Below the pieces are notes generated by a model. The model had not been told where the DNA came from. It saw nothing but the letters and a program-made list of their open reading frames with translations, and made no database searches. This document shows, piece after piece, positions 9,058 through 64,000 of a stretch of DNA of 64,000 nucleotides. Position 1 is the stretch's first letter, and every line of letters begins with the position of its first letter. A program made the position numbers and the translations under genes. The stretch is from an archaeon (GTDB taxonomy: Archaea; Nanobdellota; Nanobdellia; Woesearchaeales; GW2011-AR9), in assembly GCA_023259115.1 (NCBI GenBank), contig JAHFQW010000001.1, positions 81,937-145,936 on the forward strand. The letters run 5' to 3'.

Positions 9058-9447
9058 ATGGATATACAGAAAATCGTACAAAAAATATTAAAATTGGATA
9101 CAAAGAAAAAAGTGAAGTTCATAGTTCTTTTTGGGAGTGTGGCGAGAGGAGAGCATACCCCCCTTTCTGATATTGATTTTGCGGTGTATTATGATGGAAA
9201 AGTAGATGAACGATTTCGATTTCGTATCAAATTATTGGGTTTATTGCCAGATAGAGCTGATGTTCAGATGTTTCAAGATTTACCGTTGGCAGTACAAAAA
9301 GAGGTTATCAAAGGAAAAGTAGTATATTCAAATAATTTTCAGTTTGTGTTTGACTCGTTTATGAACGTTATCAAAGAGTTTAGTACGTTTGAAAAGTATT
9401 ATAATCGCGCTTTGGAAGAATTACGTAAAGAAGTGGGTGTGGTATGA
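9058..9447 (+). CDS. Minimal nucleotidyltransferase (MNT, antitoxin-type, Pol-beta superfamily)
   Basis: Motif LFGSVARGEHTPLSDIDFAV, i.e. GS-x9-13-D-x-D of Pol-beta-type NTases. 4-nt overlap with the downstream HEPN gene. Confidence 0.75.
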   Translation: MDIQKIVQKILKLDTKKKVKFIVLFGSVARGEHTPLSDIDFAVYYDGKVDERFRFRIKLLGLLPDRADVQMFQDLPLAVQKEVIKGKVVYSNNFQFVFDSFMNVIKEFSTFEKYYNRALEELRKEVGVV

Positions 9448-9866
9448 ATTTTAAAGATCGTATTATTTTGAAACTGCAAGAGATGAATAGGTACTTGCGT
9501 GATTTGGAAGAACTGCTGCCAGAGGATAAGAAAATTTATCTTATGAATCTCATGCAGCGAAGAGCATGTGAGAAGACAATAGAATTGGCAATTGAGGCGG
9601 TTATTGATATTGTGGCAATGATTGTTTCATATGAGAAATTAGGTGTGCCTGAGAGTGAGGATGATTTGATTAATTTCTTAGCAAAGAAAACGATTTTAAC
9701 ACAAAGAGTAAGAAACACCATACCTAAAATGAAAGGGTTTCGTAATATTTTAGTGCATAAATATGGCGAAATTGATAATGGTTTAGTTTATATGTTTTTA
9801 TCGGAGAAATTGGATGATTTTTATGAATTTGAAAAAGAGATTAAACGATATTTACAAAGAAACTAA
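9444..9866 (+). CDS. HEPN-domain protein (DUF86/HepT-like toxin)
   Basis: R-x4-H motif (FRNILVHKY) near the C-terminus. Paired with the upstream MNT in the classic MNT-HEPN operon arrangement. Confidence 0.7.
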   Translation: MNFKDRIILKLQEMNRYLRDLEELLPEDKKIYLMNLMQRRACEKTIELAIEAVIDIVAMIVSYEKLGVPESEDDLINFLAKKTILTQRVRNTIPKMKGFRNILVHKYGEIDNGLVYMFLSEKLDDFYEFEKEIKRYLQRN

Positions 9867-32795: not shown

Positions 32796-34157
32796 TTAGA
32801 GTTTATATCCTAGAGTTTTTACTGCGTTCATAAAAGGGATTTTTGTGTTTTCATCAATTAATCCTTCATCTTGGAACCATCTTAATGACTCGCGTCCGTT
32901 TCCCTGATGTCCAAGGCATAAGAAAAATATTTCTTTTGTTTTCTCATCGCGTGAAGAAATGGAGCTCTGGTAACTTTGTTTAATGTTAATTCTCTTAGTG
33001 AGGGTGTTTATACCAATGAGATCTTGCAGAGCGAGACTACGGAATCCATACACTTCTTTTTCAAATTCACAGAAGAGGGGTGTGTAATATAAAATGGCTT
33101 GGCTCATCTGTTTTTGTTCTCTAGGAGAACAGTTATTTGCTTCAAATTCAAATAGTGAGTTTAGTATTTCTATAAAATTATCTAGAGGCATACTTCTTTT
33201 TTGTTCTAGGGTCATGTGATAGGCAATTTTATGTATTGCTCTTTGGTATTCTCCTCCTAGGTTCCAACTCCCTCTATTAAATTTTGCATCAAATAAACGG
33301 AGACCATATTGTTGTTCGGTGGGTGATGTTGTAAATTCATCTTTTTCTAATATGGTTCCTACGGTGGGTGCAACAAGATCATTGACAATTCTCTCGGAAA
33401 AATCTACGATGTTATGCCCCATAGATCTTGTGTGTTGATACATAATTCGGGCATATTCGAATAGTGCGGGGTTAGAGAGTATTATTTCAGCAAAAGGTAA
33501 TTTTTCTAATGCTTGGGCAAAATCTTGATAGATCTCTTTACCATCCAGTTGTTTTCTGAGGATCCATTCTGCATATTCTAATGCCTCTTTTTTTGAAGCT
33601 GATTTAATGGTGTAATGGTTTTGTGAGAGAAGGGTAGAATTTGGACGTGAAGTGAGTAATATACGATTTTGGTTTAGTGTTTTTTGAATGAAATCTAGGG
33701 TTTGTTGCCGAGATTTTACATCAAATATTTCATCTAGTCCATCGAGAATGATGAGGGGGTCTTTTTGTTCTACGAGTTGTTGATATTTTTGAGGTTGTTC
33801 ATCAAGAATAGACAAAGTGACTTTAGAGAGATGGTCATATAATTCTGGAAGAGATTGAATAGAGGCGAAGTGTTCATCAAGACGGATGAAGAGAGGTGTT
33901 ACTTTGTGTTGAAAGGGAGAATATCCTTCCTGTGCTTGGTACGCAAGATGTTTTGCGACAACGCTTTTGCCTGAGCCACCATCACCAACTAAAATGTTAA
34001 TGCCGGTTTCAATTAATTTTTCTTCATTTACTTCATTTTTTGCTGTATCTTGGAGTATTGGCTTAAGAAAAGGCATGCATTTGCCAAGATAGAGGGGATG
34101 AGGAACACTTTTGTATTGTTGTGCTAATAAACTTAATTTTAGTTCGAGTTGTTGCAT
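32796..34157 (-). CDS. NACHT-type STAND P-loop NTPase
   Basis: Walker A GDGGSGKS. Walker B hhhhDGLDE (LIILDGLDE). Downstream LLTSRP sensor-like motif. ~250 aa C-terminal helical region. No recognisable N-terminal effector domain. Confidence 0.55.
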   Translation of the reverse strand: MQQLELKLSLLAQQYKSVPHPLYLGKCMPFLKPILQDTAKNEVNEEKLIETGINILVGDGGSGKSVVAKHLAYQAQEGYSPFQHKVTPLFIRLDEHFASIQSLPELYDHLSKVTLSILDEQPQKYQQLVEQKDPLIILDGLDEIFDVKSRQQTLDFIQKTLNQNRILLTSRPNSTLLSQNHYTIKSASKKEALEYAEWILRKQLDGKEIYQDFAQALEKLPFAEIILSNPALFEYARIMYQHTRSMGHNIVDFSERIVNDLVAPTVGTILEKDEFTTSPTEQQYGLRLFDAKFNRGSWNLGGEYQRAIHKIAYHMTLEQKRSMPLDNFIEILNSLFEFEANNCSPREQKQMSQAILYYTPLFCEFEKEVYGFRSLALQDLIGINTLTKRINIKQSYQSSISSRDEKTKEIFFLCLGHQGNGRESLRWFQDEGLIDENTKIPFMNAVKTLGYKL

Positions 34158-40931: not shown

Positions 40932-41369
40932 TTGTTTATGGATAAAGCATTTTACAAGTTTTTGGATCATACGGCGGATGTGATGTTTGTGGCGAAAGCG
41001 GCAACGTTACCTGAATTGTTTGAGCAGTGTGCTCTGGCAACAGAAGAGACAATGGTGGATGTTGCGAAGGTGAAGCAGAAGGAGCAGACGAAAATTTTAA
41101 TTGAGGAGAAGACGGTGGAACAGCTGCTGTTTAGTTTTTTGGATGAGTTGGTGTTTTTTAAGGATTATAAACAGATGATGTTTAGTACATTTGAGATTCA
41201 GATTGGTGAGGTAAAAGAGGGCTATGAGTTGAAGTGTGTGGCGCATGGGGAGAAGCTGGATATGACAAGACATAATCCTAAAGTAGATGTGAAAGCAGTT
41301 ACTATGCATTTGTTTAAAGTGGAGCAGAGTAATGGGTTGTGGAAGGCGCAGGTGATTTTGGATATTTGA
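40932..41369 (+). CDS. Archease (RtcB tRNA-ligase cofactor family)
   Basis: FLDHTADVMF (archease EHTAD(I/V) signature). ~140 aa size. C-terminal conserved Lys/Asp block. Confidence 0.7.
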   Translation: MFMDKAFYKFLDHTADVMFVAKAATLPELFEQCALATEETMVDVAKVKQKEQTKILIEEKTVEQLLFSFLDELVFFKDYKQMMFSTFEIQIGEVKEGYELKCVAHGEKLDMTRHNPKVDVKAVTMHLFKVEQSNGLWKAQVILDI

Positions 41370-41389: not shown

Positions 41390-42253
41390 TTGTTTCTTGC
41401 TCTTATGAGAAGAGGATGTTTATGGTTACTGGGGTTATTGCTGTTTATAGTGGGATGTAGTTCTATTCATAATTATTTGAATAGTTCTCTTGATAAAAAT
41501 ACTTTTGTTGTGAATGATTCAGTGGCAAGTTCTGTAATTTCTGCGGGTGATGTTTCTACGAGGAATGTTTCGGTTAATGAAACGCAGATTACTACGCAGA
41601 TTACTATTAAAGAGAGTATAGATAATTCTGTGGGTTATAATACATTTTGTACAGAATTATCTAATAAGACAATTCTGAATAGTTGTCATATAAGTAACAG
41701 AATTGTCTATAATATTACTGTTTGTTCTGCGCAATGGGTTTGTTTGAACTCAAAGACGAAAATATATAGGGTACAAAATTGTAGTTTTACGCAACGAGTG
41801 GATTGCAAGTTTGGGTGTAAGAATGATTCTTGTGCGATTGCACCAGTATGCAAGGCGGGGTGGAATTGTGATGGAAACTATTATCGTGGGTATCGAATGG
41901 AGAGTTGTGAATTTATAAAGAGGGAAAAATGTGAGTTTGGTTGTAGAGAGGGTGATTGTTCGGTTGAGGTTGTTGAAAATACATCAACAATTATTGTTAA
42001 AACGGGAGTGGAGGAGGCAAGGCCGGCGTTGGCAACGCTTAATTCTGGTGATATGGTCTTGTTGAAGAATCATAATGTGACTATTTATACGATGACGGAT
42101 GAACAAGTAATTCTGATTATCGATGGGAGGAAAAGCAATCTACTCAAGGAAGGTGAGAGTGTTACGCGTGATGATTTGACGATTGTGGTGGAAGAGATTT
42201 TATTTCAAGCGTATGGGGAAGGAAAGAAGATGATTAGTTATACGGTTACATGA
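41390..42253 (+). CDS. Secreted Cys-rich protein carrying the 97-nt in-frame repeat element
   Basis: N-terminal hydrophobic signal/lipobox-like segment (LWLLGLLLFIVGCSS). More than 20 Cys. Contains IDNSVGYNTFCTELSNKTILNSCHISNRIVYN encoded by the repeat at 41617-41713. Confidence 0.5.
   Translation: MFLALMRRGCLWLLGLLLFIVGCSSIHNYLNSSLDKNTFVVNDSVASSVISAGDVSTRNVSVNETQITTQITIKESIDNSVGYNTFCTELSNKTILNSCHISNRIVYNITVCSAQWVCLNSKTKIYRVQNCSFTQRVDCKFGCKNDSCAIAPVCKAGWNCDGNYYRGYRMESCEFIKREKCEFGCREGDCSVEVVENTSTIIVKTGVEEARPALATLNSGDMVLLKNHNVTIYTMTDEQVILIIDGRKSNLLKEGESVTRDDLTIVVEEILFQAYGEGKKMISYTVT
41617..41713 (+). mobile_element. 97-nt AT-rich palindromic repeat element, copy A (in frame inside 41390..42253)
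   Basis: Over 95% nucleotide identity with 48623-48719 and 57203-57299 while flanks are unrelated. Internal inverted repeats CAGAATT/AATTCTG and GACAATTCTG/CAGAATTGTC. GC far below the host gene. Confidence 0.6.
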
Positions 42254-45123: not shown

Positions 45124-45221
45124 TAGCGGGGGGTGGACTTTCAGAGTTCTTGTGAACTTATTTGAACCACCGACCTATGGGTTATGAGCCCATCGGGCAC
45201 TCCGAGCTACCCTACCCCGCT
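45124..45221 (-). tRNA. Initiator tRNA-Met (anticodon CAT) with a 23-nt insertion immediately after the T-loop
   Basis: Hand-folded on the minus strand: AGCGGGG-TA-GGGT-AGCTCGGAGT-GCCC-G-ATGGG-CTCATAA-CCCAT-AGGTC-GGTGG-TTCAAAT-[AAGTTCACAAGAACTCTGAAAGT]-CCACC-CCCCGCT-A. A1:U72 and three G:C pairs at 29-31:39-41 are initiator hallmarks. Perfect acceptor, anticodon and T stems. Confidence 0.65.
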
Positions 45222-61483: not shown

Positions 61484-61690
61484 ATGTCTACGACAATACA
61501 GGTTAATGACGATACGATGATTTTTTTGAAGAAGTTACGGTTGCAGTACGAGGCGTCTTCGTATGATGCATTGTTACAAATTCTGGTTAAAAAAGATTTG
61601 AAGCCAAAAAAGTCGTTATGGGGTGCGGGAGGGAAGATGACGATGAAAGAGATTCTGTCGGATTTGAGGGATAAACATGACCGATACTAA
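61484..61690 (+). CDS. VapB-like antitoxin (small DNA-binding partner of a PIN toxin)
   Basis: 68-aa ORF overlapping the downstream PIN gene by 14 nt. Typical TA operon architecture. Confidence 0.45.
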   Translation: MSTTIQVNDDTMIFLKKLRLQYEASSYDALLQILVKKDLKPKKSLWGAGGKMTMKEILSDLRDKHDRY

Positions 61691-62069
61691 CTCTGGAGCG
61701 GTGTCTAGGATTATTTGTCTTGATTCTTCTGCGTGGCTGGCGTATTATTTTGCTGAGAATAATGAGGTTAAAGAAATCGTTGATGGTTCTGTGCTTGTGA
61801 TGACTTCTTCATTATGTCTATTTGAGGTAAAGAAACGATTGTTAATTTTGAAAAAAGATTTTAAAGTGCTGCTTGATTTTATTAAACAGCGCGGGGAAAT
61901 AGTTTTTCCGGATGTGGTTATTGTGGAGAGAGCGGCGGAGTTTGCAGTGGAGAAGAAATTGGGAGCGATGGATGCGTTGATTTATGCAACGAGTGTTAGT
62001 TGTAGAGCGAAATTGATTAGCGGGGATAATGATTTTCGTGGTTTGGAGGGAGTGAGGATTATTTCTTGA
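61677..62069 (+). CDS. PIN-domain VapC-like toxin
   Basis: IICLDSSAWLAY (first Asp). ...MDALIYATSV... and C-terminal GDNDF acidic residues fit PIN. ~130 aa. Confidence 0.55.
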   Translation: MTDTNSGAVSRIICLDSSAWLAYYFAENNEVKEIVDGSVLVMTSSLCLFEVKKRLLILKKDFKVLLDFIKQRGEIVFPDVVIVERAAEFAVEKKLGAMDALIYATSVSCRAKLISGDNDFRGLEGVRIIS

Positions 62070-63063: not shown

Positions 63064-63169
63064 ATATTCCTAAAAACTTAAATAGGGAACTTGTTTTTGT
63101 GTATTTTATACGGCTGTGATCCAACCTCGCTATCGTTCGGAGGATCACTGCGTATTCACTTGCGTTCAT

Positions 63170-63347
63170 ACGGCTGTGATCTAGTGGTATGATGTGAGCT
63201 TCCCACGCAACTTTTAAGAAAAGTTGCATCAAAACAGGGCCTACGGGTGGTGAGAACGAGCTTAACGGGGAGTTTACGGAAACAGCTTAATGTCCGGGTT
63301 CGATTATGCGTTACGTTTGTAATGCGACGAGAGTCCCGGCAGCCGTA
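63170..63347 (+). tRNA. Candidate multi-intron tRNA (tentative anticodon CCC, Gly) with ~82-nt intron at 37/38 and ~29-nt insertion after the T-loop
   Basis: Hand fold: ACGGCTG-TG-ATCT-AGTGGTA-TGAT-G-TGAGC-TTCCCA[intron]A-GCTTA-ATGT-CCGGG-TTCGATT-[29 nt]-CCCGG-CAGCCGT-A, followed by a T7 run. Acceptor, anticodon and T stems pair. D stem has one mismatch. A1:U72 is unusual for an elongator. Confidence 0.4.
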
Positions 63348-63668
63348 GTTTTTTTCTATTTAAGTTTCACTCCTCATATCTATCTCCTTCACAGCAGGGT
63401 TTGATGTGGTGGCAGTTATTATAGAGGGGTTTGATTAACCATCTAAAATTCCTCAAACCCCTCTAAGAAGTATACCAACGAACCTAATTTTTAATTAAAG
63501 TAGTTATGTTCGTTGTACAAGAAAACAAACAACGATTTGTTTTCTGTACAGAAAATAAGTTGTTTCTTATTTTCTTGTATATACAAAAGCACTAACTATT
63601 TTTGGAATTAATTAGTGCTTTTGGTATACTTTGAATAATTGATGAAAATAGGGTTATTCAAAGTCCTC

Positions 63669-63740
63669 TATAGATAATTCTGCTGATTAGATTATCAGAT
63701 ATAATACAAAAAATTAGCCTAATTAACAGAATTTACTATA
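63669..63740 (+). repeat. Composite intergenic repeat: TAGATAATTCTGC module fused to the module-2 repeat (...AATTAACAGAATTTACTATA)
   Basis: The 5' part matches 43436-43450. The 3' part matches 43595-43642 at ~90%. Confidence 0.5.
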
Positions 63741-63876
63741 CAGATGTATTTCTGTTTGATTGGTTCCATTTCGTGCTGGCATTGTTCGCAGAGGAGGGGC
63801 ATAGATAGTATATTTTCTTTGAGAATTAAAATGTTACGACAGCTTTTTATAGTATTGTGAGGCTCTAGGTGTTTAT

Positions 63877-64000
63877 GGGCGCGTGGCTCAACGGTACTTT
63901 GTTCATATAATCTGGATAAGGCGAAAAAGAGCGCTTCGTTCGCAACGAAGAGGTTTCGGGTTCAAATAGATACAATCAATAAGGTTGTTTGAGAAAGTCC
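63877..64000 (+). tRNA. Candidate tRNA (anticodon CGC, Ala-like) with 32-nt D-loop intron, truncated by window end (probably a further insertion after the T-loop)
   Basis: GGGCGCG-TG-GCTC-AACGGTA-[32 nt]-GAGC-G-CTTCG-TTCGCAA-CGAAG-AGGTT-TCGGG-TTCAAAT-... Perfect D, anticodon and 5' T-stem pairing once the 63897-63928 insertion is removed. 3' T-stem and acceptor strand not found before the window ends. Confidence 0.45.

Follow-up and report, generated by a model that had tools for sequence, protein, structure and literature searches.

The window, by which the whole 64-kb stretch of DNA analysed here is meant, had a G+C content of about 39%, and the closest homologues of its Spt5 protein carried the names Woesearchaeota or Nanoarchaeota, which assigns the DNA to a DPANN archaeon. 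The G-over-C skew on the + strand was very strong in all 4-kb bins (+0.19 to +0.45), and genes lay on both strands. A tRNA gene interrupted by two introns was located at 63170-63347 on the + strand, and its upstream neighbours were a SecE/Spt5 (NGN+KOW) gene pair. Defence/toxin-type genes of the window, at 9444-9866, 32796-34157 and 61484-62069, comprised a HepT-like ribonuclease, a NACHT NTPase and a 68-aa ORF paired with a PIN-domain gene, the last pair lying just 5' of SecE/Spt5. On the other side of the tRNA gene, a zinc-ribbon ORF (CxxC...CxxC) was found on the - strand at 63367-63802. This ORF was whole (38 aa) at the orthologous locus L004 (orthologous loci are given L-numbers) and was split in the window by an AT-rich insertion of 322 nt (63418-63739) with long hairpins at 63515-63580 and 63575-63632. 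No bulge-helix-bulge (BHB) motif was found at the ends of this 322-nt insertion, which looks like a small insertion element breaking the zinc-ribbon gene.

The features of the tRNA locus were as follows.

63072-63084, + strand: archaeal promoter, an A-rich BRE-like run followed by the TATA box CTTAAATA (63077-63084), which lies 25 nt 5' of the A1 of the distal copy (63110).
63108-63169, + strand: putative 5' leader of the pre-tRNA, consisting of a hairpin (63108-63155) and a spacer (63156-63169).
63108-63123, + strand: distal direct copy ATACGGCTGTGATCCA of tRNA nt -2 to +14, identical to 63168-63183 at 15 of 16 positions.
63142-63155, + strand: inverted arm GGATCACTGCGTAT, which is in degenerate form the reverse complement of ATACGGCTGTGATCC from the distal copy, the perfect reverse complement being GGATCACAGCCGTAT; it pairs with 63108-63122 to give the leader hairpin.
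63170-63205, + strand: exon 1, tRNA nt 1-37, with the acceptor 5' strand ACGGCTG, the D arm, the 5' strand of the anticodon stem and the loop TTCCCA.
63202-63204, + strand: anticodon CCC, within exon 1.
63206-63283, + strand: intron 1, 78 nt, at the canonical site 37/38, placed by its BHB and by homologous introns in orthologues.
63284-63304, + strand: exon 2, nt 38-59, with the 3' strand of the anticodon stem, a 4-nt variable region, the 5' strand of the T stem and the T-loop TTCGAT.
63305-63333, + strand: intron 2, 29 nt, in the T-loop at 59/60, placed by the BHB rule.
63334-63347, + strand: exon 3, nt 60-73, with T60, the T-stem strand CCCGG, the acceptor strand CAGCCGT and the discriminator A73; CCA is not encoded.
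63349-63355, + strand: oligo-T archaeal terminator (T7), recognised from its sequence.

In the unspliced 64-kb window no tRNA was called by ARAGORN with or without its intron mode, and a relaxed threshold gave nothing or noise. Rfam, at gathering and at E-value thresholds, called no tRNA in the unspliced window and gave no match in the leader. Splicing by hand joined 63170-63205, 63284-63304 and 63334-63347 into a 71-mer that ARAGORN identified as tRNA-Gly(CCC), with a standard cloverleaf, A1:U72 and A73. The spliced tRNA carried U8, A14, G18G19, A21 and T54T55C56. A tRNA fold with anticodon CCC and two introns had been proposed in a first-pass annotation made from the sequence alone; the clean spliced cloverleaf, the BHB at both junctions and an intronless orthologue called by ARAGORN bear this proposal out. 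The 3' end CCCGG-CAGCCGT-A was also read correctly there, and the T7 run noted after it is separated from A73 by one G. T-rich sequence directly 3' of A73 was present in several orthologues too.

Intron 1 interrupts the anticodon loop at the site given in the first pass; its length, put there at about 82 nt, was measured as 78 nt. Its BHB has a central helix of TTCC (63200-63203; nt 32-35) with GGAA (63278-63281) and the bulges CA/C and AC/A. The motif scored H 4/4, h 5 and h' 1, which is a relaxed hBH, and its outer helix is the anticodon stem. The inner helix is weak (h' = 1), and in the RNAfold minimum-free-energy structure of the anticodon region the alternative pairing GUGAGCUUCCC/GGGGAGUUUAC was favoured over the BHB. 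Because nearest-neighbour folding draws no BHB bulges, the structural claim was drawn from comparison with orthologues. Homologous 37/38 introns were found in L086, L089, L071, L062, L095, L012 and L105. The 9-bp intron hairpin noticed earlier, GCAACTTTT/AAAAGTTGC, is present at 63207-63215 and 63219-63227. Intron 1 further contained a degenerate copy, GAACGAGCTTAA (63254-63265), of its own 3' junction GAAACAGCTTAA (63279-63290). This copy sits in about 25 nt that are missing from homologous introns elsewhere and is a second partial self-duplication in the gene. The contigs of L001 and L002, near-identical strains from other samples, both stop at 63237/63238 in intron 1, where divergence from the orthologous introns starts, and these contig ends may reflect population heterogeneity in intron 1.

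Intron 2 has a BHB with the central helix TTCG (63299-63302; nt 54-57) and CGAG (63328-63331) and the bulges AT/T and AG/T. It scored H 4/4, h 5 and h' 9; the outer helix is the T stem, and the inner helix TGCGTTAC/GTAATGCG has about 8-9 bp. The size of the T-loop insertion, 29 nt, had been given correctly in the first pass. Its position was moved from 60/61 to 59/60 by the BHB rule, which leaves the spliced product unchanged.

The gene was compared with 26 orthologues lying 3' of the same Spt5 gene, giving a set of 27 genes, of which 21 sequences were used for the cloverleaf alignment and 12 orthologues for the T-loop BHB. All 27 genes carried between zero and three introns, at the sites 20/21, 37/38 and 59/60, and all spliced to exactly 71 nt. 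The cloverleaf was 95.5% paired over the 21 aligned sequences, and four pairs showed compensatory changes; controls with a shifted register gave 24-47%. The T-loop intron BHB was 97% paired over the 12 orthologues, and the pair of its central helix between nt 57 and the intron showed a compensatory change from G:C to A:U. Exons of the window gene were 86-90% identical to those of the orthologues, and every cloverleaf pair was kept. A1:U72, which had been thought to make the fold uncertain, was invariant in 21/21 aligned orthologues, and that worry can be dropped. At the same locus in L004, with an Spt5 86% identical, the orthologue was intronless and was recognised by ARAGORN. Intronless orthologues occurred in five species (L004, L011, L065, L075 and L084). 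Introns at both 37/38 and 59/60 were carried by the window, L066, L071, L086, L017, L096 and L012, and all three sites were occupied in L020 and L027. The further states among the 27 genes were 37/38 only, 59/60 only, 20/21 with 59/60, and 20/21 with 37/38. The gene was unchanged in three near-identical strains.

Short hairpin modules recurred in this series at different places. The module GGGCGTAAAGCCC was found in the 37/38 intron of L095 (1258) and in the 59/60 intron of L096 (1957), and the module TTTCGCT..CGCTCAAG in the leader of L007 (5188) and in the 37/38 intron of L070 (4863). Hairpin modules common to introns and a leader of different species suggest that these may be mobile intron modules.

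The 64-kb window contains two exact copies of the 14-mer ATACGGCTGTGATC and no more, one at 63108-63121 and the other, 60 nt further on, at 63168-63181. Chance matches to it with at most two mismatches were expected 0.14 times, and 1 of 100 shuffled sequences reached two. The first tRNA nucleotide, A1, is 63170, hence the exact repeat corresponds to -2 to +12. The 14-nt copy 60 nt upstream reported in the first pass is thus exact as described, but its span is shifted from the "first 14 nt" of the gene. Allowing one mismatch in each direction lengthens the repeat to 17 nt (63105-63121 and 63165-63181) and carries it, downstream, to tRNA nt +14. A common leader motif, present upstream of many genes, had been considered as another source of the 14-mer; no further copy was present in the 64-kb window.

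The order of elements in the leader is direct copy, loop, inverted copy, spacer and real gene. The 7-bp hairpin GTGATCC/GGATCAC (63116-63122 and 63142-63148) seen earlier is present, and it extends to about 13 bp (ATACG...CGTAT). RNAfold gave the leader -16.3 kcal/mol, a hairpin no stabler than shuffled sequence (z = -1.1; 27/200 shuffles fold as well). No convincing C/D-box or K-turn motif was found by eye in the leader or in intron 1. The view that the leader is what an internal deletion left of a tandem tRNA copy (its acceptor and T arm) was not borne out, as only GTTCG in the loop goes beyond the similarity that the hairpin requires. Also rejected was a pairing of the 3' trailer with the mature 5' end into a BHB of the sort known from rRNA processing stems or permuted tRNAs; by eye, only 2-3 of the 4 pairs formed, and not consistently from species to species.

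Homologous leaders were found in at least five other species (L061, L095, L007, L096 and L012), with arms re-matched to each tRNA variant. Among the matches listed, leaders clearly alignable as type 1 were those of the window, L061 and L095, and type 2 leaders were those of L007, L096 and L012. Comparison of the window with L061 showed that leader nt 1-38 were identical at 37 of 38 positions and the tRNAs at 61 of 71, while the rest of the leader and the flanks were unalignable. The arms were GGTCT/AGACC in L095 versus GATCC/GGATC in the window and L061, which amounts to two double compensatory changes tracking the local tRNA variant; this apparent covariation of the leader arms is based on few sequences, three of type 1 and three of type 2 among the matches listed. 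In type 2 leaders the distal copy runs to about nt 20 and is followed by other hairpins, and MAFFT gave no reliable alignment of the type 2 leader of L007 with type 1. The closest relative, L096, has a separate TATA box for the real gene, 3' of the distal element. L102 had no leader although its Spt5 is 95% identical to that of L095. A metagenome pattern scan for the two-copy arrangement had five matches listed, the relevant ones being only L093 (the same as L061) and L095, and the pattern scan of viral contigs gave 0 matches.

The best TATA-like 8-mer of the 27 genes (usually TTTAAATA) lay at a median of 25 nt before A1, and at 24-28 nt in 24 of them. In the window, L061, L095 and L007, the usual spacing was met only by the distal copy, and no TATA-like element stood at the usual spacing before the proximal copy. 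No TATA was found within the introns of the window gene. Since the TATA spacing fits only the distal copy, the distal copy was taken as the ancestral gene start, and the transcript must include it. The fixed short TATA distance of these tRNA genes suggests that they are transcribed nearly without leaders, and the 60-nt leader is an exception that needs a postulated processing activity.

On this evidence, 63170-63347 is read as a functional tRNA-Gly(CCC) gene with two BHB introns, and the upstream repeat as part of a leader derived from the gene itself, with a probability of about 0.8. The repeat would belong to a direct/inverted/direct arrangement of about the first 15 nt of the gene. The option of a partial gene duplication, raised in the first pass, fits the direct and inverted copies of the gene's 5' end, and the leader is most simply seen as the product of a local duplication/inversion that was then kept by selection as a closed hairpin. 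Alternatively, the inverted arm and the proximal copy could join in a BHB-like motif, with cuts at 63148 and 63183 that would destroy the tRNA. It is plausible, though speculative, that the distal copy has been kept because its hairpin holds the inverted arm away.

Maturation could then proceed as follows. Transcription would start near 63108-63110 from the TATA box at 63077-63084 and stop at the T7 run. The first 48 nt of the leader would form a hairpin in which the decoy tRNA 5' end (nt -2 to +14) pairs with its reverse complement, and both strands would be kept off the tRNA body. The body would fold with one BHB in the anticodon arm and one in the T arm, and the archaeal splicing endonuclease would cut at 63205/63206, 63283/63284, 63304/63305 and 63333/63334. 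The three exons would be joined by RtcB ligase with Archease. The 60-nt leader would be cut at 63169/63170, most likely by RNase P, the trailer would be trimmed, and CCA would be added to give a 71-nt tRNA (plus CCA) reading GGG.

Archease, a cofactor of the RtcB tRNA-splicing ligase, is encoded in the window at 40932-41369, and an adjoining ORF of 287 aa (41390-42253) had no Pfam match. The proteins scanned in the 64-kb window included no splicing endonuclease (EndA), RtcB or RNase P, and Rfam gave no match to RNase P RNA there. A literature search on RNase P in Woesearchaeota returned nothing usable.

The 60-nt segment could instead be a third intervening sequence, with leaderless transcription starting at the distal copy (63110), which would be the mature 5' end, and with 63124-63183 or an equivalent register excised. 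The TATA box stands 25 nt before the distal A1, the median spacing of the compared genes, most of which are leaderless; nt 10 of the distal copy agrees with the local tRNA variant (A in the window and L061, G in L095); and the alternative spliced product was also called tRNA-Gly(CCC) by ARAGORN. The failure to find RNase P among the scanned proteins or by Rfam points the same way. Scanning the precursor for BHB motifs without restriction proved too permissive, and register-restricted tests were used instead. In these, none of 22 registers in the window, L061 and L007 combined a central helix of 4 bp with flanking helices; H = 4 was reached only by the palindromic tetramers GGCU and GAUC, with h/h' of 0-2. 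Real D-loop introns of the orthologues end in CAC(G), which is complementary to the D-loop, but the segment ends in D-loop sequence itself. The hairpin of the distal copy with the inverted arm would also compete with any joining motif, and in L096 the second TATA box stands between the distal element and the gene. A third interruption is accordingly rated very unlikely. Since no BHB joins the distal to the proximal copy, the segment was read as a 5' leader that would be removed by 5' processing, presumably by RNase P. Another idea is that the leader is a new kind of cis-acting element, controlling the folding or processing of the interrupted precursor, or else the mark of a third intervening sequence that leaves the precursor by some route other than BHB splicing; this is an unlikely proposal. 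Under such a route, the mature 5' end would come from the promoter-proximal copy.

An origin of the repeat from att sites had been suggested in the first pass. An element would have integrated in the tRNA gene and duplicated its 5' end, nearly all of the element would have been deleted, and the remaining 46 nt between the copies would be neutral junk. Integration into archaeal tRNA genes does leave partial tRNA copies, the leader is patchily present (L102 and, in part, L096 are close relatives without it), and the hairpin modules common to introns and leaders of different species suggest mobility. Against such a scar, there is no ORF in the 46-nt interval or beside the copies and no integrase among the window proteins scanned, and the interval holds the reverse complement of the repeat, which is unexpected from simple integration. 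The near-identity of the module in the window and L061 amid unalignable flanks and the re-matched arms of L095 do not resemble neutral decay, and the hairpin arrangement is conserved in other species; an att-type scar is unlikely. It is highly improbable that the distal element is an independent unit, either a small RNA driven by a promoter or, in a split or tri-split tRNA, the 5' piece that is joined in trans to pieces encoded elsewhere. In its favour, the distal element of L096 has its own TATA box at the right spacing and the real gene a second one, a tri-split tRNA-Gly exists in Caldivirga (PMC4090602), and L105, where a promoter, intron sequence and 3' exons stand without a 5' exon in 5.4 kb, indicates that split genes may exist in the lineage. 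But no terminator or second promoter stands between the distal element and the gene in the window, L061, L095 and L007, and the window exons are contiguous. The acceptor-like strand is paired to its adjacent complement and is not free for a partner; the distal element spans only nt 1-14, and no partner piece is known. That the locus is a decaying pseudogene full of insertions, making no functional tRNA, is hardly credible. Standard tRNA finders do fail on it, the gene contains two partial self-duplications, and the neighbouring small gene is broken by an insertion; yet the exons are intact and keep every cloverleaf pair, both insertions lie exactly at BHB motifs, promoter and terminator are intact, the near-identical strains show no change, and the other two tRNA genes of the window are interrupted likewise.

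The first of these other two genes is an initiator-type tRNA-Met(CAT) at 45124-45221 on the - strand, which begins AGCGGGG..., has A1:U72 and was missed by ARAGORN and Rfam. Its T-loop holds a 23-nt BHB intron, at about 45138-45160 (site 59/60), that scored H 4/4, h 5 and h' 5. ARAGORN identified the spliced product, a 75-mer, as tRNA-Met, and a TATA-like sequence, TTTTTAAAA, lies about 25 nt 5' of the gene. The second is the 5' part of a tRNA-Ala(CGC) at 63877-64000 on the + strand, cut by the window end, with a complete orthologue in L012. Its D-loop is interrupted after GGT by an intron that starts ACTTTG..., and another intron lies in the T-loop. The intron start GGTACTTTG of tRNA-Ala(CGC) was common to the tRNA-Gly D-loop introns of L080, L081 and L085.

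Two orthologous loci differed from the rest. In L012 (about 2040-2450, - strand), a spacer of 96 nt, with no TATA box in it, lay between intron-bearing genes for tRNA-Ala(CGC) and tRNA-Gly(CCC), and the two tRNAs are probably made as one transcript. This spacer is homologous to the leader of L007 and L096 and holds a degenerate distal copy; a promoterless 96-nt spacer would imply that long 5' extensions are processed in this lineage. In L105 (3370-3496), a TATA box was followed directly by conserved 37/38-intron sequence and the 3' exons of tRNA-Gly(CCC) with the T-loop intron. HicB-like and PemK genes flank this 5.4-kb locus, in which no 5' exon of tRNA-Gly(CCC) was found. L105 is a candidate for either a stand-alone 3' half of a split tRNA or a truncated pseudogene.

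At least three tRNAs (Gly-CCC, initiator Met and Ala-CGC), all interrupted in the T-loop, lie in the window where standard tools see none, which shows under-calling of tRNA sets in DPANN genomes. The orthologue series, with its zero to three introns, shared hairpin modules, possible stand-alone 3' half and leaders made from the gene's own 5' end, is a natural experiment on the gain, loss and movement of archaeal tRNA introns. The leader itself matters only if selection maintains it for some part in the folding or processing of the precursor.

Interrupted tRNA genes in such archaea are already known, and only the self-copy leader hairpin is unusual. The sites 20/21, 37/38 and 59/60 are documented archaeal tRNA intron sites (PMC4090602). 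A marked increase of tRNA gene disruption was reported in DPANN archaea, including a Woesearchaeota genome, with tRNA sets left incomplete through undetected disrupted genes (Kaneta et al. 2018, PMC5829648). The window gene resembles those disrupted genes, which occur with L3-loop splicing endonucleases, and is one such undetected case; a self-derived leader is not described there. As far as the work on multiple-intron tRNA genes in Crenarchaeota/Thermoproteales is presented in PMC4090602 (Marck & Grosjean 2003; Sugahara et al. 2007, 2008), the likeness lies in BHB introns at 37/38 and at non-canonical sites including 20/21 and 59/60, in a number of up to three introns and in being missed by standard finders. 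Unlike those genes, as described in that source, the present one belongs to a mesophilic-looking, low-GC DPANN archaeon, and a single orthologous locus ranges from 0 to 3 introns among relatives whose Spt5 proteins are 75-95% identical. The near-identical modules at different positions and genes recall the tRNA intron transposition of Thermoproteales (Fujishima et al. 2010, as cited in PMC4090602), although, by that account, the present case differs in that only short hairpin modules are common and that a 5' leader contains them as well.

Split and tri-split tRNAs (Nanoarchaeum equitans; tRNA-Gly of Caldivirga; PMC4090602) likewise have a tRNA piece directly behind a promoter, and L105 resembles a stand-alone 3' half; the window exons, in contrast, are contiguous in one transcription unit and need no partner in trans. 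In Caldiarchaeum subterraneum, a mobile element has left a 5' fragment of tRNA-Thr 1.8 kb 5' of the gene (Sugahara et al. 2012, PMC3293823). Both cases have a 5' tRNA copy upstream of an intact intron-containing gene, and populations are heterogeneous there and may be so here; the interval in Caldiarchaeum is 1.8 kb long with a recombinase, whereas here it measures 46 nt, includes the copy's reverse complement and folds into a hairpin that is conserved.
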